The notes under the pieces: model-generated | What the model was told of the DNA's origin: nothing | The model's database searches: none | What the model saw: only the letters and a program-made list of their open reading frames with translations | Part shown: piece by piece, positions 1 to 14,047 of the stretch | Layout of the letters: every line of letters starts with the position of its first letter | How positions within the stretch are numbered: position 1 is the first letter of the stretch | Assembly: GCA_944324875.1 (NCBI GenBank) | Contig: CALUXZ010000001.1 | Location: forward strand, 1 to 38,983 | DNA: 38,983 nt | Direction: 5' to 3' | Source of the DNA: Candidatus Gastranaerophilales bacterium | Lineage (GTDB): Bacteria > Cyanobacteriota > Vampirovibrionia > Gastranaerophilales > Gastranaerophilaceae | Position numbers and translations under genes: made by a program

Positions 1-22
1 TTTTTTATGTAATTTATTTATG

Positions 23-59
23 AGTCTCGGGTGTTGCTTGAGGCTTTCTTTTTATTTTT
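23..59 (+). terminator. putative rho-independent terminator of a + strand gene ending upstream of the window
   Basis: Imperfect stem AGTCTCGG / TTGAGGCT (Watson-Crick plus G-U pairs), 7-nt loop, followed by TTTCTTTTTATTTTT. Confidence 0.4.
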
Positions 60-277
60 ATTATAATTTCAAAAAATTCAAAAGAAAAGCTGCAAACCCC
101 TTCACAGCAAGAATTTGACCTATTGCTTGATATCACTTTTTATCACTTTTTGTCTTTTAAAAGGGCTAAAATATTTAACAGGATTATTTTCTGCAAAAAC
201 AAAAAAACAAATATTTAAAATTTTTTTTACAAAACAGGAAACCCTTACAAGTCAAAAGTGTCATTTGTTACAAATGT

Positions 278-856
278 TTACGCTTCAGGATAAAATGTGG
301 GTATAAAAAAATTAGTGCAAACCTTTTTCTTGCTGGTTTCCGAACTGTAATATATCAGGTCGTTAATTGCTTGACCTAAATTAAATGAATAATAAGGACT
401 TGATGGTTCTACATAATATCCTCTTAAAAATTTTTGACCGTTAATATCTTCCACAATATTCTTATTTGCTATAGGTTGTAGGCTAATTTTATCTATCTTA
501 AATCCATTTTTTATCTTGGCAATTATATCGCATTTATATTGGCTTACTCTTTTATCATAATACTTTTCATCTACATTTTGACTTCTTGGCTCGTAACCTA
601 TTTTAGAGCAAAGCCTTTTTGTAGAAAGTCCAAAAGGCTTTTTAATTTTTTCTTTTTGCGTTCTATTATTTATCAGAGCTTGAATTAAATCAATTTCTTT
701 TGGTTCCAATTCTATAATAACTGAATAAAAAGATATAACCCTATCATTTTTAAATATAATAAGTGGATACTGGTAACATAAGAAAATGTATTCTGTCATA
801 TCTTGCAATACATTTCCTATGGGAGTATCTATCAAACAACATTTTTTCAAATTCAT
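278..856 (-). CDS. hypothetical protein, possible OmpR/PhoB-type winged-helix (trans_reg_C-like) DNA-binding protein
   Basis: 192-aa ORF co-oriented downstream of the WYL gene. 'IELEPKEIDLIQALINN ... YDKRVSQYKCDIIAKIKNGF' resembles by eye the wHTH pattern 'LTxxEfxLLxxL ... vDvhIsrLRkKl'. Nothing else recognised. Confidence 0.5.
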   Translation of the reverse strand: MNLKKCCLIDTPIGNVLQDMTEYIFLCYQYPLIIFKNDRVISFYSVIIELEPKEIDLIQALINNRTQKEKIKKPFGLSTKRLCSKIGYEPRSQNVDEKYYDKRVSQYKCDIIAKIKNGFKIDKISLQPIANKNIVEDINGQKFLRGYYVEPSSPYYSFNLGQAINDLIYYSSETSKKKVCTNFFIPTFYPEA

Positions 857-963
857 AGTGCAATAGTAACATGAAAAATAGTATTTTCAGAATATAATCA
901 AATAATTTCTTTAGGCTTCTTTTAATAATTTATATTAAAATGCTATTAAAAATTTATTCAGCT

Positions 964-1959
964 TTATTCTGATAACCTCTCATTAAATAACTGATTATTC
1001 AAAACATCTTTTAAATAAGTTTTATAGTATTCTTTTAATTTAAGCGGTCTTTTGATTTTTACATCACAACCCCATTTAAAAAGTTCTTGGCATATTGCAT
1101 AAGTTCCACCTGATATGAATCTAACTTCTACATTGCCATTTTCAAGTAGTTTCATCTTCTGTGTCTGGTGAAAATGATAATTAAGCACATCTTCTGCAAT
1201 AGCTTTATCAAATTCCAGTGTTATATTTAAAGGCTTTTCCTGATAAACCCCGAATGAATTGTTACAATAATCTGTTAGAGAAAACTTTTCATCTTTTTCA
1301 AAATACTCATCTAAAATTGTGAGGTTTATGATTTTATCAACTTTATATTGTCTTAATGCATTTACATATTCATTAAATCCAACAAGATAATATTTATCTG
1401 CAATAACCAATCCGTAAGGGTTTAGAGTAATTGTTTTTATTACATCATTGATTGGGTAATCAAAACGCACCATTTTAAATGCAAGCATAGCATTTCTTAG
1501 CTGTTCCAATATTTTTGGCTCTGCTTTTACTCGAGAATATTGCCTTACTGCAAAACCTTCTGATTCCATAATTGCAGAAATATCAGCATCAAGAGATTGC
1601 ATATTTTTTTGTGGAGTTAAGGCTTTAATTTTTGCGATTAACTCATCTATTTCTTTTTTTCGCTTGGCATCATTTGATAACCCCTTTAAATATTCAAGAT
1701 TAGCAAAATCATTTGCAGAAAAAGAAATAAGCATATTTGCAGTTCCTTTCACAAATCTCCAACGTTTTGTTTTATCTGGAGTTGGCACTTCTTCAATTTT
1801 TTCAGGGAATAGGTCAAATAAAAGGGCTTTCATTCTTTCGGCAGAACGTCTTGAACATTCAAAATGCTCTTTTATATCATTTATACTTAGACCACAATAG
1901 CTATTCTGAAACATCATAGCTAGTTCTATTATCTGTTCAGCTTTTGTTAATCTTGACAT
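964..1959 (-). CDS. HTH-WYL-WCX transcriptional regulator (YafY/BrxR/CapW-like architecture)
   Basis: N-terminal HTH ('LSINDIKEHFECSRRSAERMKALL'). Central WYL-type segment 'ITLNPYGLVIADKYYLVGFNEYVNALRQYKVDKIINLTILDEYF'. C-terminal WCX-like 'FKWGCDVKIKRPLKLKEYY'. Confidence 0.85.
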   Translation of the reverse strand: MSRLTKAEQIIELAMMFQNSYCGLSINDIKEHFECSRRSAERMKALLFDLFPEKIEEVPTPDKTKRWRFVKGTANMLISFSANDFANLEYLKGLSNDAKRKKEIDELIAKIKALTPQKNMQSLDADISAIMESEGFAVRQYSRVKAEPKILEQLRNAMLAFKMVRFDYPINDVIKTITLNPYGLVIADKYYLVGFNEYVNALRQYKVDKIINLTILDEYFEKDEKFSLTDYCNNSFGVYQEKPLNITLEFDKAIAEDVLNYHFHQTQKMKLLENGNVEVRFISGGTYAICQELFKWGCDVKIKRPLKLKEYYKTYLKDVLNNQLFNERLSE

Positions 1960-1988
1960 ATTTATGTATCCATTTCTTTATAATAAAT

Positions 1989-2022
1989 AATACGACACAA
2001 CTATGTCAAATTGTGTCGTATT
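1989..2022 (-). promoter_or_regulatory. perfect 12-bp inverted repeat (AATACGACACAA N10 TTGTGTCGTATT): attenuator/terminator or operator between nuclease and WYL genes
   Basis: Arms at 1989-2000 and 2011-2022 are exact reverse complements. The loop contains the nuclease stop codon (2006-2008). On the minus strand the hairpin is followed by ATTTATTAT. It lies 29 nt upstream of the WYL ATG (1959). Confidence 0.6.
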
Positions 2023-3124
2023 TACTAACTAAATTTTCTATAAGAGGTTCCAAATCCTTAATTGCCTTTTTGATGCTAGATTGAATTTCTTCATTTGTTT
2101 TATGTCTACATTCAATTTCTATATAATCACATTTTTCATTCTTTTCATTTTTTAGAGAAATTGCTTTCCAATCCTTATAAATGAATAGTTTTAAACTGTT
2201 TTTATATTCAAGCATATAAAATAAACTATGCTTTGTAAGCTTGTTATTCCATAACAGATGGTCTTGTTGCATTCTTTTTGTTATAAATCTAACGCCTGCA
2301 CCTGTATTATCGTCATATCCAAATTTATCCCTATCATCATTTATCAAGTTATCATCTTCATTTACAACTGATTTCATAATGTTATATATATCGGTTTGGA
2401 ATTCTCTTTCAAACTCTTTTAAAGCCTCGTAGACTTCTTTGTGTTCATCATATATTTTTCGGCATTCCTTTTTAATGCTTTCTTCTAACATAGAATATTT
2501 CTCCTTTAAAATTAAACTATATTGCTTTATTATTTCCAATTCAATTTTATTATCGGGTTTATTATTTATGATATTTTTTAAAATGGCGTAAACTTCTCTA
2601 TATGTAATTGGATAATAATCTTTTAAAGCTCCGTTTAAAGTTTTCTCATCCGGCATTTCAATATCTAAAAATACAAAGTATTTATTTGGTATATTTTTAT
2701 AATTTTTGCTTGAATATATAAAATCCTTATAATGTTTACATTGTTCATCATGTTCACAAGAGCCATACTTGTTTTCAATAGCACACAAGAAATTTTTACC
2801 TGTAATTAAGATATCAATTCTTCTGTTTTTATTAGTTAAAACCTCTGTTTCAACATTTACAAATTCTTCTTCACTCCAATCAATATCGGCGTACGATTTG
2901 AAAAACTCTTTAATAAATTCATATCCTAAATTATGAGTTTCTTCAGGATTTAAAAGCCAAGCCAAAAAGTTAGAGTGACGTATTTCATAGTTATCTAACT
3001 TTAAAACTTTAAAAATATTGAATTTGTTTTTATTGGTTTGTTCTATCTTTAATATGCTATTTTGCAATTTTTGGATTATTTTATCATCAGTAAATTTTTG
3101 AAATTGTTCATTTTGAATTTGCAT
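2006..3124 (-). CDS. PD-(D/E)xK nuclease family protein with uncharacterised C-terminal half
   Basis: 'HSNFLAWLLNPEE' motif typical of PD-(D/E)xK family proteins. Catalytic core 'RRIDILITGKNFLCAIENKY' (D104 ... E117-x-K119). AAGGG RBS. Residues ~180-372 have no recognisable motif. Confidence 0.8.
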   Translation of the reverse strand: MQIQNEQFQKFTDDKIIQKLQNSILKIEQTNKNKFNIFKVLKLDNYEIRHSNFLAWLLNPEETHNLGYEFIKEFFKSYADIDWSEEEFVNVETEVLTNKNRRIDILITGKNFLCAIENKYGSCEHDEQCKHYKDFIYSSKNYKNIPNKYFVFLDIEMPDEKTLNGALKDYYPITYREVYAILKNIINNKPDNKIELEIIKQYSLILKEKYSMLEESIKKECRKIYDEHKEVYEALKEFEREFQTDIYNIMKSVVNEDDNLINDDRDKFGYDDNTGAGVRFITKRMQQDHLLWNNKLTKHSLFYMLEYKNSLKLFIYKDWKAISLKNEKNEKCDYIEIECRHKTNEEIQSSIKKAIKDLEPLIENLVSKYDTI

Positions 3125-3136
3125 ATTTTGCCCTTT

Positions 3137-3337
3137 TTATTTTGCGTATGATGTACCTACTTTTACCCCTTTTTCATTGTATATCCATATTTGAGTACCA
3201 TATTGAACACTTACTGTTGTAGATGTAAATCCGATAAGTTTTCCGCTTGAAATGCATATTGTTTTTATAACTCTGCCTTTTTCATCATAAAGCCAAATAT
3301 GTTTTCCGGCTTTTTCTACTACATTTGCTATTGCCAT
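3137..3337 (-). CDS. 66-aa internally duplicated small protein (two IW(L/I)Y(D/N)EKG units), first gene of the nuclease unit
   Basis: ATG at 3337 is preceded by AAGGAG with a 6-nt spacer; the track's TTG start at 3364 would include this RBS. The stop is 12 nt before the nuclease start. Internal repeat GKHIWLYDEKGRVI / GTQIWIYNEKGVKV. Confidence 0.7.
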   Translation of the reverse strand: MAIANVVEKAGKHIWLYDEKGRVIKTICISSGKLIGFTSTTVSVQYGTQIWIYNEKGVKVGTSYAK

Positions 3338-3410
3338 AATTAGCTCCTTTCTTTGTAACAACACTATAGCATATCAGTCCGTCAGAATTTGTCGTAACAA
3401 AATTTATAAC

Positions 3411-3425
3411 TAGACTTTAAGTCTA
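3411..3425. promoter_or_regulatory. palindromic operator-like site TAGACTT-T-AAGTCTA in the divergent promoter region (small protein/nuclease vs XRE gene)
   Basis: Perfect 7-bp arms around one central base, with an extra TAGAC half-site at 3429-3433. It overlaps a weak -35 (TTAAGT, 3417-3422) spaced 17 nt from TATTAT (3440-3445). Confidence 0.45.
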
Positions 3426-3459
3426 TACTAGACCGAGAGTATTATAGCACAATGTTGAT

Positions 3460-3675
3460 ATGGCAGACGAATTATGCATAAAATTTGCAAATAATGTTAA
3501 GAAATATAGAGAATTAAAAGGCTATAATAAAGGCAAAATGTCTGAATTGGTTGGTTGTGATTTGTCATACATTGGTAAAATTGAACGAGCTGAGAAATAT
3601 CCTAACCTTAAAATGATTTTTAAAATAGCAGATGCGCTTGAAATCCCTGTAAAAGATTTGTTTGATTTTGAATAA
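3460..3675 (+). CDS. XRE-family helix-turn-helix transcriptional regulator
   Basis: 71 aa. 'MSELVGCDLSYIGKIERAEKYPNLKMIFKIADALEIPVKDLF' matches the HTH_3 (Cro/C1) pattern. No Shine-Dalgarno in the ~14 nt between the -10-like element and the ATG. Confidence 0.85.
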   Translation: MADELCIKFANNVKKYRELKGYNKGKMSELVGCDLSYIGKIERAEKYPNLKMIFKIADALEIPVKDLFDFE

Positions 3676-3700
3676 TACACAATTATATTTTGTATTATTC
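3670..3700. promoter_or_regulatory. box pair A: GAATAATACACAAT-tat-ATTTTGTATTATTC (two inverted 14-bp boxes)
   Basis: Box1 at 3670-3683 and box2 at 3687-3700 are 13/14 complementary with a 3-nt spacer. The pair overlaps the XRE stop codon (3673-3675). Confidence 0.6.
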
Positions 3701-3777
3701 AGTGAAATTATGTGAAAAATTACCCTAATTAAATTTCAATATCATTGTAAATGCTCGTAAATATTAAGGTGTACATA

Positions 3778-3820
3778 GAATAATACATAATTTATAATTT
3801 AAATATATTGTGTATTATTG
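3778..3820. promoter_or_regulatory. box pair B: GAATAATACATAAT-N15-ATTGTGTATTATTG (two inverted 14-bp boxes) immediately upstream of the recombinase gene
   Basis: Box3 at 3778-3791 and box4 at 3807-3820. Box4 (3807-3819) is the exact 13-bp reverse complement of box1 (3671-3683). Confidence 0.6.
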
Positions 3821-3847
3821 ATTATGACTGAATTTGAGGTATTTATT

Positions 3848-4411
3848 ATGGAATTTGTACAACCAATTAGAAATTTAAAACAGATTGAAACAATCAAAAA
3901 GCTTTTAAAGCAACAAAATCTAAGAGATTATTGCTTGTTTGTTCTTGGGATTAATTCAGGCTTAAGAATAAGCGATTTGTTGAAATTGCAAGTAGTTGAT
4001 GTAATTGAAAATGGTAAGATAAAAGATAGGATTAGGCTTCGAGAGAAAAAGACAAATAAATTTAAAGATTTTCCACTGTCTGAAAAAACTAAGCAAGCAA
4101 TAAAAGAATATTTAAAAACAAGAAATTATAAAGAAAATGAGCCTTTATTCATATCAAGAAAGAATAAAGGCTTTTTATTGCGACAACAAGCATATAAAAT
4201 TATTAATGATGTTGCAAAATCTGTCGGCATAAAAGAAAAAATCGGTACTCATACTCTAAGAAAGACTTTTGGTTATCACGCATATAATAATGGCTACGAC
4301 ATAGCAATCATTCAAAAGCTATTCAATCATTCTTCGACTGCCGTAACCTTACGCTATATAGGAATCACACAAGATGAAATGGATGATGTGTATTTGAGTT
4401 TAGATTTGTAA
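3848..4411 (+). CDS. small tyrosine recombinase / site-specific integrase (FimB/FimE-size, ~187 aa)
   Basis: Catalytic signature: R in 'GLRISDLLKL', 'HTLRKTFGYH' (HxxR), and Tyr in 'TAVTLRYIG'. ATG 3848 has GAGG 8 nt upstream. The track's TTG at 3818 lies inside box4. Confidence 0.85.
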   Translation: MEFVQPIRNLKQIETIKKLLKQQNLRDYCLFVLGINSGLRISDLLKLQVVDVIENGKIKDRIRLREKKTNKFKDFPLSEKTKQAIKEYLKTRNYKENEPLFISRKNKGFLLRQQAYKIINDVAKSVGIKEKIGTHTLRKTFGYHAYNNGYDIAIIQKLFNHSSTAVTLRYIGITQDEMDDVYLSLDL

Positions 4412-4756
4412 GTTATATGTATTTGGAATTTTAAGCTTTATAGGTGATGAGTAAATTTTTTGTATATTTAAGTCTTGAATTGTATTAAAAAGATTTTTTC
4501 TTGGCAATAAAATGCTAATATTATCAATTATAAAGAAGTCATAATTTGCATATTTTTCATATAAAACAACGCTGCCTAAAATATCAATCTCATTAACCAA
4601 ATCTTCACTATCTACATAAATTGCATTGTCTAACAATTTACAAATTTCTTTCAACATAGTTGTTTTACCACTTCCATTATCGCCACATATACAAACATTA
4701 GATTTTTCTGATTTGTCTATTATGTCTTTTACTAGTTCTGAAATCCTTTTATCCAT
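4400..4756 (-). CDS. 118-aa mini P-loop protein (Walker A and Walker B-like only)
   Basis: 'CICGDNGSGKTTMLKE' Walker A and 'YDFFIIDNIS' Walker B-like. Too short for a complete NTPase fold. Its 3' end overlaps the recombinase 3' end by 12 nt (convergent). Confidence 0.6.
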   Translation of the reverse strand: MDKRISELVKDIIDKSEKSNVCICGDNGSGKTTMLKEICKLLDNAIYVDSEDLVNEIDILGSVVLYEKYANYDFFIIDNISILLPRKNLFNTIQDLNIQKIYSSPIKLKIPNTYNLQI

Positions 4757-4800
4757 TAATATTTCTCTCTTTTTATTACATTTACACTTAATTATTTTTG

Positions 4801-5064
4801 CTATAAGTTGTGCCTGTTATCTGAAATTTCTAATTCAATTTCAAATAATATCAACTTTAAAATTAATGTTAAACCTTTATGGTCAATGTTTTTTAGCCTG
4901 TAGCTAATATCAATACCTACGGCTAAAAATCCATAATCTAAACTGTTTTTATAACATTGTATCCTTAATGACATGCCTTTAAATTTCAGAAAATGATATT
5001 TAATAAATAATATTGAAAGTTCGTTATTAAATTTTATTTGAAAATTTTTGATTTTATCTTGCAT
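4801..5064 (-). CDS. hypothetical 87-aa protein
   Basis: GGAGG RBS 4 nt upstream of the ATG. Sits between the MTase-like and P-loop genes on the same strand. No motif recognised. Confidence 0.5.
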   Translation of the reverse strand: MQDKIKNFQIKFNNELSILFIKYHFLKFKGMSLRIQCYKNSLDYGFLAVGIDISYRLKNIDHKGLTLILKLILFEIELEISDNRHNL

Positions 5065-5098
5065 AAGACCTCCATTTTAATTATGAGTAATAAGCACG

Positions 5099-5836
5099 TC
5101 AATAAGTGTCATTTGAGCAAATTGTGAATAAACTTAATTGCTTATTAGTCTGTTTAATATTCAATTCTACTTGTTTTTTATTGTATTGCTTCAATTTCCA
5201 TTCAAAACAATTCACAAAATAAAGAGGGGTATAAAATACTCTTTGAAATTTCAAAGCTAAGCTATCGCCTAGCATCACTCTTGCAGGGATTCCATACAAT
5301 GAAAGCTGTATGTATGACATCATAAAACACATCTCATCAATATCTATAACTTCAACAAAAAGTTGTTGTTGATAATTGTAGCCATTATTTTTCATTGTTT
5401 CTGCAAATGCAATAATCATTCCAGAGCTTCCACAACATGGATCTGAAAGTGTTATAAAATCGTTAGTTTTCAGTTTTGTTTCAACTTCAATGAAATTTAT
5501 TTCGGCCATCATTTTACTCACTGAATAAGGTGTAAAGAACTGCCCAGTAGCGACATTGCCCAAATTCAATTTCATATACACACTACCTAAAAAATCTTGA
5601 TGTTTATCTTCTAATGCTATAACTAAAAGAGCAAGCAGTTTTGAAAATTTTTCTGCTTGCTCTTTTGTGTATTTATTAGCTATTTCTAAATATTTTCTTT
5701 CAATTTCTTGACTTCGATAAAATGGTTGTGCTATTGCATAAGTACTTAATTTCAAAAAGTCTTGAAATATATTTTCAACCCGTTCTGTGGGTGCTAAATT
5801 TTGAAGGTTTAAAATAAATTCTTTTAAATAGTCCAT
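5099..5836 (-). CDS. N6-adenine DNA methyltransferase-like protein, truncated, with degenerate catalytic motif IV (TPLY instead of NPPY/F)
   Basis: 'GQFFTPYSVSKMMAEI' (motif X-like) and 'LSDPCCGSSGMIIAF' (motif I, SAM binding). '...IQLSLYGIPARVMLGDSLA' matches the HsdM-like pattern. The position where 'kfDvVlxNPPF' is expected reads 'KFQRVFYTPLYF' (nt 5219-5230). Only ~40 aa follow. GAGGT RBS. Confidence 0.7.
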   Translation of the reverse strand: MDYLKEFILNLQNLAPTERVENIFQDFLKLSTYAIAQPFYRSQEIERKYLEIANKYTKEQAEKFSKLLALLVIALEDKHQDFLGSVYMKLNLGNVATGQFFTPYSVSKMMAEINFIEVETKLKTNDFITLSDPCCGSSGMIIAFAETMKNNGYNYQQQLFVEVIDIDEMCFMMSYIQLSLYGIPARVMLGDSLALKFQRVFYTPLYFVNCFEWKLKQYNKKQVELNIKQTNKQLSLFTICSNDTY

Positions 5837-6447
5837 AATCTTACCTCGTTTATCCTAGAATAATTCTGATTAAGTTGAAATTGATTTTATATATAAATAT
5901 ATTTAAAGCACAATTTTCGTTTAATCAGATACAATCTGAATTGAGTATACTAAAATTTGTAACTCAAAACGGCTAAAAAGAGAGCTATTACTCCATTTTA
6001 ACCATTTTTATTATTATAAAATAAATAAATTTAGTCGCAAACCATTGATATATAGGCTTATTTACCGGACTTACTTCAAAAAATACACTTCTAATGTTTC
6101 TATATATTTTGTCATAAGCGCATTATAGTATAAATATTGTAATAATATTAAATATAGAAAATTACAAAAAGATTACAACAAAGATATCAATAATAGTTAA
6201 ATTTCAAGACCATCTTTATCTTTTGTAATTTTGTAACTATAAAAATCTTAAAAAATAAAAAATATTAATTTTGATAAATTGATGCTTAGCAATGTTTGCA
6301 CCGTTTGTTTATCAATATTTATTATGATATTTTGCTCAAATTCTTTATTTGAGTAAAAACATCCAAGTTGATAACATTAGTTATTTCTTTGTAAAATTCA
6401 TTTATGAAAAGTTCCAATGTCGTACAATGAGGGGAGTTTTTTATTGG

Positions 6448-6480
6448 AAAGGCTGTTTTTAATGACAGCCTTTTTATATT
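6448..6480 (+). terminator. orphan rho-independent terminator-like hairpin
   Basis: AAAGGCTGT (6448-6456) / ACAGCCTTT (6465-6473) form a perfect 9-bp stem with an 8-nt loop, then TTTTTATATT. No annotated + strand gene lies upstream. Confidence 0.5.
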
Positions 6481-6630
6481 TATTTTATCTTTACTATAAT
6501 AATCAACCATGTGTTTCATTAGCAGGAAATATCATCAACAAGCAAACAAGCCTATGAAAATAATATTTAAATTTTATTGCAAAACACAGCCAAAAACTGT
6601 ATTATTAAATTTTACTGACGGAGTTTCATT

Positions 6631-7200
6631 ATGAAGAAAATTTATTTATTAATAGCATTGTTAACGCTATGTATAAGTCAAGCAAATGCGCAGGTATTTA
6701 AAGGAAGAGCACTGGAAGAAATTTCAACAAAAAATCCGAGTGAAACAATCAGCGTAAAAGCAATTGACGATTTAAAACTTGAAAACGGCATTATTATTGA
6801 AAAAAAATCCATTATTACAGGCAAAATGACAGAGGTTACATCACCGGAAAAATTTCATAAGAATGCAAGTTTTACATTTATCCCCACGCAATACACTGAT
6901 CCAAACGGTATAACACATAAAATTGAAACAGAAGTAAAAGCGACATACAGGCAAAAATTAAAACCGGACTTTAAACACTCGGAAATAAGTTTTGGAATGA
7001 GCAGCGACGGTAAAGATCCCCTAAACTCTGCTTTTATATTTTCCCCTTCATATATTTCAAACACAAAAAAAATTATTCACGGTGAAGGAAAAGACGTCTG
7101 GGAAGACTACAAGAACAGAAACACGCCTTGGGGAAAGGGTGAGGAAATAAGTATTAAAACAAATGAGGTTATATACTTTAATTTTCCTGATGTCGAATAA
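6631..7200 (+). CDS. secreted hypothetical protein
   Basis: Signal peptide 'MKKIYLLIALLTLCISQANA|QV'. GGAG RBS 8 nt upstream. No catalytic motif recognised. Confidence 0.65.
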   Translation: MKKIYLLIALLTLCISQANAQVFKGRALEEISTKNPSETISVKAIDDLKLENGIIIEKKSIITGKMTEVTSPEKFHKNASFTFIPTQYTDPNGITHKIETEVKATYRQKLKPDFKHSEISFGMSSDGKDPLNSAFIFSPSYISNTKKIIHGEGKDVWEDYKNRNTPWGKGEEISIKTNEVIYFNFPDVE

Positions 7201-7271: not shown

Positions 7272-7526
7272 ATGTTTAAAAAAATATTAGGAGTAATTAT
7301 TTGCCTTTCAATAACATCTGTTTATTTAAGCGCAAATGCACATGGATTTAGCTGGTTTGGTTTAAGAAACAACGACACGGAAATTTTTATTGGCAACACA
7401 ACACACCCTGAGCCACCGCCACCACCCCACAAACATCATCCGAAAAAACACAAACCAAAACCAAAAAAACACAAACCGCCAAAAAAAGACCCGAAACATT
7501 GTAAGTTTTTTTGGTGGTGCAAATAA
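7272..7526 (+). CDS. secreted 84-aa precursor with Pro/Lys/His-rich cationic tail ending in CKFFWWCK
   Basis: Signal peptide 'MFKKILGVIICLSITSVYLSANA|HG'. Low-complexity 'HPEPPPPPHKHHPKKHKPKPKKHKPPKKDPKH' followed by a Cys-x5-Cys aromatic loop. The stop is 3 nt before the MATE ATG. Confidence 0.6.
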   Translation: MFKKILGVIICLSITSVYLSANAHGFSWFGLRNNDTEIFIGNTTHPEPPPPPHKHHPKKHKPKPKKHKPPKKDPKHCKFFWWCK

Positions 7527-11707: not shown

Positions 11708-14047
11708 ATGAACTATAAAAAAATAGTACAAAAAGAAATACCTGAAATAAACAAGGAGTTTGCCGACTATATCGGCGACTCTTTGCTGTCTGAATTGCTT
11801 GCCTTAAGGGGTATAAATACTATTGAACAGGCAAAAGAGTTTTTAAACCATGAAAATGCACAATTAAGTTCTTTGGATGTCTTTACACAAGGCGAAAAAG
11901 CACTAAACAGAATTTTAAAAGCAATTAACAACAAAGAAAAAATACTTGTATGGGGTGACTTTGATGCAGACGGTGTAACATCAAGCGCACTAATGTACAA
12001 AACGCTTAAAAAACTTCAGGCAAATTTTGAAATTTTTATACCGGACAGAGAAAAACACGGTCATGGTATAAATTCAAAAAAAGCCTTAGAACTAATTTCA
12101 AAACAAAAAATAAAAGTACTAATTACTGTTGACTGCGGAATTTCAAATGCAAAAGAAATTAAACTCATAAAATCACTGGGTGTAGATGTTATAATTACCG
12201 ACCATCATAAATTGGACGGTGAAACACCCGATGCATTTGCGATATTAAACCCTCAAGCACCAAATTCGCTTTGCGAAGATTTAAAAATAGCTCAAATTGA
12301 AAATTTGTGCAGGCTTGCAGGCGTTGGTGTAGCTTATAAATTAGCTCTTGCATTGCTTAATAAAAAGCAAGACGACGAACTTCTAACGCTTGCTTGCGTT
12401 GGCACAATATCCGATGTTGTCCCTCTTTTGGGTGAAAACAGAACCATTGTTGCAAAAGGCTTAAAATTAATTAATCAAAAATACCATAAAGGCATTGCAA
12501 AGTTGTTTGAAAATAACGGCAGAGAAAATATAACAAGCAATGACATAGCTTTTGTTTTAACACCAAGAATTAATGCCGTTGGCAGACTTAGTACACCTGA
12601 TTTAGCGTTCAATTTTTTAATTGAAGAAAACGACAATGCACTTGATTTTATAATTGAAAAATTAGATAACTTTAATAAAATAAGACAAAGTTTATGCGAA
12701 AATATATATCTTGAAGCCAATCAAATGGTACAAGAATCAAAACAAGACTCCGCAATAATTTTATACAATAAGGACTGGCATTTAGGGATAATAGGTATTG
12801 TTGCATCAAAAATACTTGAAGATAACTATAAACCCGTATTTATGATGACTTGCGATAACAACAATATTGGCAGATGTTCAATTCGCTCAACAGAAAACTA
12901 CAATGTGTATGAGATTTTAAAGAATAATGCCGATTTATTTTTAGGTTACGGCGGACATACGCTTGCAGGGGGCTTTTCATTCGACATAAATATACATTCT
13001 TTTGAAGAAATCAAGTCCGCAATACTAAAAACAATTGAAGAAATTGCGCCGACAGTCAAAACCAAAGATTACATTGAAGCGGATAAGTTTCTTGAAACGG
13101 AAGAAATAACTAAAGAATTAATTGACAAAATAAACATTCTGGAGCCTTGCGGACAAAATAATCCCTCGCCTGTTTTTGCAATAAAAAATGCAACACTTGA
13201 AAATATACGCATAATTGGCAAAAATTCAAATCACCTTAAAATAATTTGTCAAAAGGATGGACAAAATTTTGAATGTGTAAAATGGAACGAAAATTCCTTT
13301 GATATACCCATAAAAACTGCTCTGGATTTAGCCTTTTCACCAAGATTAAATATTTTCAACGGAGAAGAAAATATACAGCTTGAAATTATAGATGCGTATA
13401 ATGAACAAATTTGCACAAATAAAAATAAGATTAAAATTTATGACCACAGAAAAAAAGACGGGATACTTGCCCAAATATGCGAATATCTAAATAAGAACGG
13501 CTTAGATATAACCGTTTGGGCAAAAAACATTAAAACTCTTGAAACATTGGAAAAATATCCTGAAATTAAAAATAAAATATACAAAGACAACGATAAGCAT
13601 AACTCCATAATGCTTTTTGACTATCCGTCAAACCTCGAAGAATTTGAAACAATTTTAAAAAAAATAAGACCAAAAAAAATTCATATAATGAATGACAATT
13701 TTAATGAAAATATTGAACAATCCATAAAAATACTTTCCGGCATGCTAAAATTTTCCCATAACCATAAAAACGGCGAAATTGACATTTCAAAATTATCTCT
13801 TGCTTGTGGCACAAGTGAAACATTTATTCAACTTGCACTTGAAATACTGGAACAAATAGGGGCTATAGAAATTTTAGATGTTGATAAAATAAGATATATT
13901 GAACCTGCAGATATAAATAAGATGAAAAACCAAACGCTTTATGAAATTTTATGTGATGAATTTACAAAAATATTGGATTTCAAAAAACATCTTGCCGAGG
14001 ATGACCTCGACAAGATGTATGAAATTATTAATGGTTGTTTAATTTAA
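11708..14047 (+). CDS. recJ: single-stranded-DNA-specific exonuclease RecJ
   Basis: DHH family motifs 'WGDFDADGVTS', 'ITVDCG', 'IITDHHK' and 'GYGGHTLAGGFS'. Confidence 0.9.
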   Translation: MNYKKIVQKEIPEINKEFADYIGDSLLSELLALRGINTIEQAKEFLNHENAQLSSLDVFTQGEKALNRILKAINNKEKILVWGDFDADGVTSSALMYKTLKKLQANFEIFIPDREKHGHGINSKKALELISKQKIKVLITVDCGISNAKEIKLIKSLGVDVIITDHHKLDGETPDAFAILNPQAPNSLCEDLKIAQIENLCRLAGVGVAYKLALALLNKKQDDELLTLACVGTISDVVPLLGENRTIVAKGLKLINQKYHKGIAKLFENNGRENITSNDIAFVLTPRINAVGRLSTPDLAFNFLIEENDNALDFIIEKLDNFNKIRQSLCENIYLEANQMVQESKQDSAIILYNKDWHLGIIGIVASKILEDNYKPVFMMTCDNNNIGRCSIRSTENYNVYEILKNNADLFLGYGGHTLAGGFSFDINIHSFEEIKSAILKTIEEIAPTVKTKDYIEADKFLETEEITKELIDKINILEPCGQNNPSPVFAIKNATLENIRIIGKNSNHLKIICQKDGQNFECVKWNENSFDIPIKTALDLAFSPRLNIFNGEENIQLEIIDAYNEQICTNKNKIKIYDHRKKDGILAQICEYLNKNGLDITVWAKNIKTLETLEKYPEIKNKIYKDNDKHNSIMLFDYPSNLEEFETILKKIRPKKIHIMNDNFNENIEQSIKILSGMLKFSHNHKNGEIDISKLSLACGTSETFIQLALEILEQIGAIEILDVDKIRYIEPADINKMKNQTLYEILCDEFTKILDFKKHLAEDDLDKMYEIINGCLI

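Follow-up and report, generated by a model that had tools for sequence, protein, structure and literature searches.

The contig CALUXZ010000001.1 of a Candidatus Gastranaerophilales bacterium (GenBank assembly GCA_944324875.1), of which the first 38,983 nucleotides were analysed and are referred to here as the window, contains near its beginning a set of genes coding for a small all-beta repeat protein, a PD-(D/E)xK nuclease and a transcriptional regulator with a WYL domain (Table 1). We propose, with a probability of about 0.5, that this set constitutes a mobile nuclease cassette induced by single-stranded DNA (ssDNA), in which a DriD-type WYL factor switches on the operon for the small protein and the nuclease; its role is probably defence. 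Judged from its sequence, the cassette has a PDC-S26 nuclease at its centre and operates in the manner of operons controlled by DriD; it is neither a canonical restriction-modification (R-M) unit governed by a controller (C) protein nor a typical toxin-antitoxin pair. A first-pass annotation of the same DNA had described four co-oriented genes on the minus strand between positions 278 and 3337, and all of these open reading frames (ORFs) were recovered as claimed. Its grouping of the WYL, nuclease and 66-amino acid (aa) genes held up as a conserved module, and two other genes attached to it, the 192-aa ORF (orf192) and a recombinase gene, were rejected as integral parts, since among related loci (designated L plus a number) orf192 recurs only in L006 and the recombinase gene accompanies the module only in L003 and L036. 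A chance juxtaposition of the module genes was excluded because their order recurs in independent contigs and because of the regulatory box statistics given below.

By its homology, its recognition helix and the boxes described below, the regulator is a DriD-type WYL factor. Pfam comparison placed the WYL domain above its cutoff (34.4 bits versus 21.8) and WCX marginally below it (23.8 versus 23.9), and a phmmer search of all PDB chains aligned the protein with DriD (8tp8; 9pfq/9pfv/9pga) over its full length with E 2.8e-31, residues 3-314 of the regulator corresponding to 22-335 of DriD. These results confirmed the gene at 964-1959 as coding for a regulator of helix-turn-helix (HTH), WYL and WCX architecture, and they replaced its earlier comparison with BrxR and CapW by one with DriD (E 3e-31): neither BrxR nor CapW was among the matches at E<=1, the next one after DriD and fragments being PafC, with E 0.25. 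In Caulobacter crescentus DriD binds ATACGAC-N7-GTCGTAT, with R37 and R41 reading the CGxC half-sites, becomes active once its WYL domain has bound ssDNA, and activates recA, recJ, dnaG, bapE and didA (PMC10853764). Both base-reading arginines are kept in the regulator, whose recognition helix reads RRSAERM where DriD has RRTAERM, so that R38 and R42 align with R37 and R41 of DriD. In the ssDNA pocket, five of the eight contact positions have kept their residue or exchanged it for a similar one (Y168, Y191, R203, Y205 and K206, corresponding to DriD Y168, Y192, R204, W206 and R207).

Two boxes of the DriD type are found in the module, one in the operon promoter and the other 5' of the WYL gene. 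The pattern TACGAC-N7-GAC occurs exactly twice in the 39 kb of the window, where 0.04 sites were expected, in both cases on the operon strand; a scan for the full palindrome, allowing up to three mismatches, showed that only these two boxes score two mismatches or fewer in the window, and the operon box is the only exact CGNC-N7-GNCG match inside the module. Exactly 8 nt separate each 21-mer from a -10 hexamer downstream, and no -35 hexamer was found at a usable distance at either promoter. In DriD-dependent promoters the site likewise lies over the -35 position at a constant distance to the -10, with no -35 (PMC13004042), and the didA and CCNA_03891 promoters printed in that work contain a box, 8 nt and a hexamer at the same offset, the hexamer being our reading and not confirmed as the authors' own -10. 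Before the operon, the order of box, 8 nt and hexamer is kept in L001, L002, L003, L036, L007 and L069, with TGn and TAnnnT at the same offset in six of six aligned loci; before the WYL gene, a box is followed by 8 nt and TATTAT, TATAAT or TAAAAT in L001, L002, L003, L006 and L007. In a sample of 24 sequences (the window and 23 WYL-linked loci; 389 kb), the combination of box, spacing and TAnnnT was found 48 times, as against 6.7+-3.0 in shuffles, and many of these sites lie within about 60 nt 5' of an apparent start codon. Conservation of the regulatory region stands at about 71%, yet different genes come first behind it: the small gene, a PDDEXK_4 paralogue (L036) or a 379-aa gene (L001). 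The control by the WYL protein that had been suggested for the nuclease thus gains support from two regulator-type boxes with a fixed -10 spacing that is conserved across loci. A dimer of the WYL protein most likely binds both 21-bp boxes, because the base-reading residues are conserved and because the boxes match, are positionally fixed and are themselves conserved.

The second box coincides with a hairpin that had been regarded as separating the nuclease gene from the regulator gene. In a terminator scan, positions 2022-1989 gave a stem-loop of 14 pairs that encloses the nuclease stop codon and is followed by T-rich sequence (minimum free energy -19.3 kcal/mol). The stem is real, and it is not a mere separator: because the second box lies within it, the structure is both terminator-like and the promoter box of the WYL gene. 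Locus L003 preserves the stem by paired changes (ACACAA/TTGTGT to ACCCAA/TTGGGT); in L001 the box is enclosed by another stem.

The nuclease matched Pfam PDDEXK_4 (PF14281) with E 3.7e-29 and 102.4 bits (gathering cutoff 22.3) over residues 35-202. Residues D104, E117 and K119, as well as the HSNFLAWLL block, were invariant in an alignment of 30 sequences with identities down to 38%, and codons 104 (nt 2815-2813) and 119 (nt 2770-2768) fall where an intact PD-(D/E)xK core had been placed, at nt 2768-2815. The model obtained with AlphaFold2 (AF2), with a predicted local distance difference test (pLDDT) score of 86, consisted of the nuclease core, a helical segment, a beta domain and a long terminal helix, and placed D104, E117 and K119 on the central sheet strands E102-108 and E112-118. 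In Foldseek searches with this model the core alone was aligned, with PDB nucleases at E>=3e-3 and with a 200-aa phage PD-(D/E)xK protein at E 1e-11, which bears out the remark that the C-terminal half holds nothing recognisable. This half is subfamily-specific and probably sets substrate choice; we regard it as a variable module because it is common to only 65 of 120 homologues. A sequence-profile search of the PDB with the nuclease alignment returned noise only, and neither for the nuclease nor for the small protein did PHROGs give an informative match or a scan of IMG/VR any relatives.

The statement that the gene combination could not be matched to a named system had to be corrected for the nuclease after comparison with PADLOC, in which it hit 12 PDC-S26 hidden Markov models (HMMs), the best being PDLC04972 (E 1.2e-45; residues 7-360 of 372 aligned with positions 10-354 of 397 of the profile). 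Since this match extends nearly from end to end, the gene is already named, as an unvalidated single-gene phage-defence candidate; a pipolin study lists PDC-S26 among the systems detected, without testing it. The PADLOC definition comprises one gene, whereas here the nuclease gene is the second of an operon, behind that for a repeat protein, and probably answers to a WYL regulator of its own.

Translation of the first operon gene begins with the ATG at 3337, all homologues beginning with MAIAN, although the mechanical ORF list extended it to a GTG at 3364. The strong ribosome-binding site noticed before is present (AAAGGAG at 3350-3344, 6 nt 5' of this ATG), and so is the close spacing of the two genes: the stop codon TAA (3139-3137) is followed by 12 nt and then by the nuclease ATG at 3124, and the gap measures 12-18 nt wherever the pair occurs. 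The protein is made of two repeats of about 33 aa, three in some relatives. Its AF2 model (pLDDT 93) is all-beta with seven strands, and the top Foldseek matches in the PDB were two-bladed beta-propeller fragments (6r5x, E 0.018, template-modelling score 0.65), so the small protein is predicted to resemble two propeller blades. Fragments of the 6r5x type assemble into eight-bladed propellers. The model, with its seven strands and two repeats, is matched best by 6r5x, 6r5y and 2yms, oligomeric beta-propellers built from two-blade fragments, and three-repeat variants exist; on the other hand, the Foldseek E is only about 0.02 at 16-18% identity, and a blade of 33 residues is unusually short. No Pfam, NCBIfam or PADLOC family was matched by the small protein at E<=0.1; the Pfam RHS repeat gave a weak match in 14 of 60 members of its family. 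By exhaustive profile search this family has 655 cluster representatives at E<=1e-3, mostly of 60-70 aa, and a broad alignment of it was too divergent to give a search pattern.

The co-occurrence of the small gene with nuclease homologues was found in the closest nuclease clade, to which it is confined and where it always lies 12-18 nt 5' of the nuclease gene; it did not extend to most of the wider family. The idea that PDDEXK_4 nucleases in general have the small protein as a partner was rejected, since loci from plasmids, phages and metagenomes recovered with the small protein as query showed it in other contexts. Relatives of it lie directly upstream of or adjoining genes for hydrolases of the metallo-beta-lactamase (MBL) fold or the beta-CASP type in the Thermus plasmid pHC11 (L062, 4001-5798) and in a Rhizobium plasmid (L061), and a further one lies between a metallophosphoesterase gene and a gene for a 522-aa protein (L068, 3357-6027); the family may be a partner of various hydrolases. 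Two high-GC metagenome contigs (L064, about 3377; L066, about 2734) have a perfect CGAC-N7-GTCG box 223 nt 5' of a homologue of the small gene, with TATCCT 8 nt behind the box, and the family may thus also belong to DriD-like regulons elsewhere. In six members (P0133, P0135, P0146, P0155, P0174 and P0270) the small-protein unit is joined through low-complexity linkers to C-terminal transmembrane segments.

Relatives of the nuclease were collected by scanning one genome per species, which gave 57 loci, and WYL linkage was counted over 56 loci. The closest relatives of the module come mostly from metagenome-assembled genomes of gut Melainabacteria/Gastranaerophilales. The order small gene, nuclease gene, WYL gene was found in the window, L001, L002, L003, L006, L007 and the near-identical L069/L070 (at least six independent related loci), and the short contigs L071 and L072 contain the pair of small and nuclease genes. 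A WYL gene was detected within 500 bp of the nuclease gene in 14 of the 56 loci, from several phyla, and, by an iterated profile, within 10 kb in 24. Among the organisms are Bacteroidota, Lysobacter, Deferribacteraceae, Clostridia, gut Alphaproteobacteria and Limosilactobacillus. Outside L069, the WYL protein and the divergently encoded XRE protein were 66-74% and 56-82% identical to those of the window, the nuclease only 31-48% and the small protein 33-50%. In L069 the values in this order were 89%, 83%, 91% and 95%, and there the module has a different flank, with hsdM-hsdR behind the XRE gene and genes for ParE and a reverse transcriptase beyond. The neighbourhoods of related loci contain genes for type I R-M, ParE, reverse transcriptase, HerA, PD-Lambda-5 and IetA-like proteins. 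PADLOC comparison of the partner ORFs of related operons gave nothing except a Cas4-like nuclease (L056, where the gene order is WYL, nuclease, Cas4-like nuclease), a distant PDC-S26 paralogue (L001) and an IetA-like protein (L038). Two of the loci deserve separate mention. L073 (7732-9720) contains a lone gene for a 389-aa nuclease after an apparently degraded ORF, with a decayed copy of the WYL box and hairpin downstream, and is a cassette in decay. L003, a record labelled Methanobacteriaceae archaeon, carries the module with XRE and recombinase genes about 79-87% identical to those of the window and also a fragment of a bacterial DNA polymerase III alpha gene; this contig is probably mis-binned.

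In the mechanism that we favour, a DriD-type dimer would sit on the 21-bp boxes, centred about 31 bp 5' of two predicted transcription starts, one of which would serve the bicistronic operon of the small protein and the nuclease and the other the WYL gene itself. By analogy with DriD, PafBC, SiwR and CapW, the WYL domain may sense ssDNA from phage replication or DNA breakage, and the binding of ssDNA would turn the operon on. We lean somewhat towards activation rather than repression because of the family relationship to DriD, the box at the place of the -35 and the lack of a usable -35, and this preference is kept slight because the extended -10 of the operon could give basal firing. Once induced, the nuclease would cut DNA by means of its predicted D104/E117/K119 metal site, and either the invader would be destroyed or the infected cell killed, the substrate probably being picked by the variable C-terminal half. 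The co-translated 66-aa protein would probably oligomerise and act as a stoichiometric partner gating or targeting the nuclease, and the C-protein-like XRE protein may supply a second layer of control. A defensive role is suggested by the PDC-S26 status of the nuclease, the mobility and low GC of the cassette, its R-M, ParE and reverse transcriptase neighbours, the fast evolution of its effectors, its decay in L073 and the absence of a box at recJ.

Among characterised systems, DriD shares with the regulator homology over its full length, a near-identical core of the recognition helix with both arginines, and a box of the form CGxC-N7-GxCG with an AT-rich spacer, lying over the -35 position at a set distance to the -10 and found also beside the regulator gene. 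The regulator described here, however, moves together with its target operon on an island of low GC, whereas DriD governs scattered damage-response genes as a master regulator encoded in the chromosome, and the box beside driD drives a divergent operon in Caulobacter, whereas here it points at the WYL gene. BapE, a Caulobacter endonuclease induced by damage from a gene behind a DriD box (PMC13004042), offers a parallel for a nuclease gene in this position, although no small partner or island context has been reported for it. With BrxR of BREX and CapW of CBASS, the regulator has in common the winged HTH-WYL-WCX architecture, a defence-like effector as neighbour and probably the signal, ssDNA, which has been shown for CapW (PMC11662680); besides the absence of a sequence match at E<=1, it differs in a promoter layout that suggests activation and in an effector that is a single nuclease with a small partner.

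Several observations weigh against the proposal of an ssDNA-induced defence cassette. The ssDNA pocket is conserved only in part, the three remaining contact residues of the eight in DriD, S172, R178 and R189, being replaced by D, I and D (with K175 and K189 adjacent). The extended -10 (TGn) of the operon could fire without an activator, and the WYL protein could for that reason be a repressor. The small gene is absent from most PDDEXK_4 loci, including the close ones L004, L005 and L009, and the L073 nuclease, 83% identical to that of the window, is retained where both the small gene and the WYL gene are missing. The neighbourhoods of related loci are mixed and include housekeeping genes, and near or behind boxes there are genes like those of damage responses (DnaB_C/KaiC-like ATPases, SMC_N, SprT-like, UvrD). 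In addition, neither PDC-S26 nor any component of the module was backed by functional evidence in the literature searched.

These points bear on alternative explanations, of which one retains both the cassette and its inducer and reverses the sign of control: a WYL protein acting like BrxR or CapW would block RNA polymerase at the box until ssDNA releases the protein. All WYL regulators tied so far to defence systems are repressors (PMC10853764, PMC11662680), the operon has an extended -10 in every locus, workable without a -35, and the WYL-gene box of the window contains TTGACA with TATTAT 18 nt downstream. That last arrangement is not kept in other loci, whereas the order of box, 8 nt and hexamer is; moreover, the protein is similar to the activator class, and the position and spacing of its boxes copy those of DriD-dependent promoters. 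We consider repression possible, although not the expected outcome. Somewhat more doubtful is the view that the module belongs to the DNA-damage response, with the WYL protein as the DriD/PafBC-like damage regulator of this lineage and the nuclease as a damage-induced enzyme of repair or of an apoptosis-like process, comparable to BapE. It accords with DriD, an activator of recA and recJ, being the closest characterised relative, with the many box promoters of related loci that precede genes for DnaB_C/KaiC-like ATPases, an SMC_N fragment and an FtsZ-like protein, and with SprT-like and UvrD genes in the same neighbourhoods as well as the Cas4-like nuclease gene of L056. It fits poorly with a module that is patchy, horizontally transferred, located in low-GC DNA and flanked by R-M, ParE and reverse transcriptase genes, whose effectors diverge far faster than its regulators and which decays in L073; recJ of the window (11708-14047, plus strand) had no DriD-type box nearby in the window-wide scan, and other cargo behind boxes is conflict-like (reverse transcriptase, ankyrin repeats, ADP-ribosylglycohydrolase). 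The defence and damage-response readings are compatible and do not exclude each other, BapE itself being a DriD-activated endonuclease.

An addiction pair, with the small protein from the upstream gene as antidote to a toxic nuclease and as stabiliser of the island, would account for the layout, with a small gene directly 5' of the nuclease gene at a gap of 12-18 nt, and for relatives of the small protein on small plasmids that adjoin MBL/beta-CASP enzymes and a metallophosphoesterase. We regard it as unlikely, given a small protein that is all-beta, with no DNA-binding fold and no match to a curated family at E<=0.1, the many intact nucleases of the family that lack it, the nuclease that persists alone in L073, and an inducer-dependent operon that is unlike an addiction design. 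Least probable is a restriction enzyme under C-protein control, either orphan or modification-dependent and type IV-like, with the XRE protein as controller and the WYL protein as an incidental neighbour. The match of the XRE protein to PADLOC Control_protein (E 1e-10), the conserved GACT-N3-AGTC repeats that adjoin its gene, a variable nuclease domain that could read DNA and the lack of an evident active cognate methylase would all suit it; the XRE gene, however, is divergent from the nuclease gene and not co-transcribed with it, it heads a type I R-M operon in L069, and the WYL boxes and linkage are kept well beyond the loci that carry XRE. The reading as an ssDNA-induced nuclease cassette switched on by its DriD-type factor is the one that we retain.

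Table 1. Features of the nuclease cassette and its promoter regions, in positions of the 38,983-nt window.
Feature	Position	Strand	Basis or remark
192-aa ORF (orf192)	278-856	-	downstream of WYL gene
Winged HTH-WYL-WCX transcription factor, DriD type, 331 aa	964-1959	-	Pfam WYL/WCX, DriD homology
-10 TATTAT of WYL promoter, 8 nt after box	1987-1992	-	read from sequence
Stem-loop, 12-14 bp, T-rich tail; terminator-like for small-protein/nuclease operon, encloses box	1989-2022	-	terminator scan
Second DriD-type box ATACGACACAATTTGACATAG, 5' of WYL gene, overlapping nuclease stop codon	2001-2021	-	pattern at 2020-2005
PD-(D/E)xK nuclease, 372 aa	2006-3124	-	Pfam PDDEXK_4 in N-terminal half, PADLOC PDC-S26 full-length
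All-beta repeat protein, 66 aa, first gene of operon	3137-3337	-	two units of about 33 aa
Extended -10 TGC TATAGT, 8 nt 3' of operon box	3363-3371	-	read from sequence
DriD-type box TTACGACAAATTCTGACGGAC (CGAC-N7-GACG), operon promoter	3377-3397	-	TACGAC-N7-GAC pattern at 3396-3381
Inverted repeats GTCTA-N3-TAGAC-N5-GTCTA, between XRE promoter and WYL box	3411-3433	.	conserved columns, six-locus alignment
Conserved block GTGCTATAATA; plus strand reads TATTAT 14 nt before XRE ATG	3440-3450	.	alignment and sequence
XRE/HTH_3 protein, 71 aa, resembling R-M controller (C) protein	3460-3675	+	Pfam HTH_3, PADLOC Control_protein

The cassette lies in an AT-rich region, as had been pointed out, and this is real yet modest, with a GC content of 26-30% in positions 1-7000 versus 29-38% in the remainder of the window. 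An Rfam scan of 1-7000 gave no credible match. The XRE gene, earlier taken for a repressor gene belonging to the module, is a conserved neighbour and resembles an R-M controller gene. Its product matched HTH_3 of Pfam (E 7e-11) and Control_protein (E 1.4e-10) and HTH_VI (E 1e-12) of PADLOC, and is 56-83% identical in L001, L002, L003, L036 and L069, where the gene is always divergent from the box promoter. The inverted repeats before it contain GACT-TAA-AGTC and are kept in six loci; the form GACT-N3-AGTC is, as we take it, the C-box motif of R-M controller proteins. The conserved block between these repeats and the XRE gene is likely its promoter, with a very short leader. The likeness to C proteins thus lies in a small HTH_3 protein that matches the Control_protein HMM and in inverted repeats 5' of its own nearly leaderless gene; the difference lies in the divergence of this gene from the nuclease operon, in the lack of a partner methylase and in its place before hsdR-hsdM in L069. 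The XRE protein is possibly a second regulator of the cassette.

No methylase with motif IV is encoded nearby, in agreement with the claim that an active cognate methyltransferase is lacking. The gene at 5099-5836 (minus strand) codes for a 245-aa N6_Mtase-like protein with the S-adenosylmethionine-binding motif I (DPCCGSSG) and no NPPF/NPPY motif IV; it is a full-length member of the phage family phrog_5696 (PHROGs, E 1e-76) and neither an obvious fragment nor evidently a truncated pseudogene. L069 has a 54%-identical copy close to the module, and in L036 a partial copy adjoins the recombinase gene. Between the recombinase gene and this methylase-like gene are a 118-aa P-loop fragment with only a Walker A motif (4400-4756, minus strand) and an 87-aa ORF (4801-5064, minus strand) that has a 40%-identical homologue of 100 aa in L001 (2462-2764); both look like remnants of another system. 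The recombinase (197 aa; 3818-4411, plus strand) is a tyrosine recombinase without an N-terminal domain that resembles Xer recombinases and invertases of the FimB/FimE type. Copies 84-87% identical adjoin the XRE gene in L003 and L036, the only such related loci, and no convincing inverted repeats were found in its flanks; we do not count it as part of the defence cassette. The product of orf192 belongs to no family in Pfam, PADLOC, NCBIfam or PHROGs; its sole homologue, in L006, is 40% identical and occupies the same position, and the 201-aa gene located there in L069 is unrelated, so that membership of orf192 in the module is doubtful. Just beyond the low-GC region, an 84-aa ORF (7272-7526, plus strand) combines a start like that of a signal peptide with an extremely Pro/Lys/His-rich tail (HPEPPPPPHKHHPKKHKPKPKKHKPPKKDPKH).

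In related loci, genes found behind boxes code for a DnaB_C/KaiC-like ATPase together with a reverse transcriptase, an FtsZ-like protein, an ADP-ribosylglycohydrolase, an SMC_N fragment, a WG-repeat protein, an AAA ATPase and an ankyrin protein. In L007 (2177-4026, minus strand), divergent from the small-protein/nuclease operon, a box promoter precedes genes for a DnaB_C/KaiC-like ATPase (313 aa) and then a reverse transcriptase (288 aa), possibly a second ssDNA-induced pair of effectors. L054 (1-14181) contains seven DriD-type box promoters in 14 kb around two WYL genes, a clustered regulon whose boxes precede, among others, genes for an ADP-ribosylglycohydrolase, an FtsZ/tubulin-like protein, an SMC_N fragment and a DnaB_C-like ATPase. 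As a tentative extension, to which we give less credence than to the cassette itself, there may be an undescribed class of mobile "ssDNA-alarm" islands, with an activator-type WYL factor in place of the repressors known from defence systems and with box promoters placed before interchangeable effector cassettes, the 66-aa protein being a new oligomeric propeller that gates the nuclease. The genes mentioned suggest that such cassettes would comprise a PDC-S26 nuclease with a ring-forming mini-propeller, a KaiC-like ATPase with a reverse transcriptase, a tubulin-like protein, an ADP-ribosylglycohydrolase and ankyrin proteins.

In the literature searched, we did not find the combination of an activator-class WYL factor, the box code, a small propeller-like partner and a PDC-S26 nuclease. 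To our knowledge, chromosomal damage responses are the only setting from which the DriD/PafBC class has been described. If the proposal is correct, the cassette joins two worlds of WYL regulators, with a DriD-class factor travelling together with a fast-evolving nuclease that has been flagged as a defence candidate. The cis code of box, 8 nt and -10 can be used for finding the targets of such regulators in uncultured gut bacteria, a three-gene construct becomes available for testing PDC-S26, and the large uncharacterised family of proteins of about 65 aa gains a possible function. The cassette would also allow one to ask whether nuclease induction upon sensing of ssDNA serves immunity or damage-triggered cell death.

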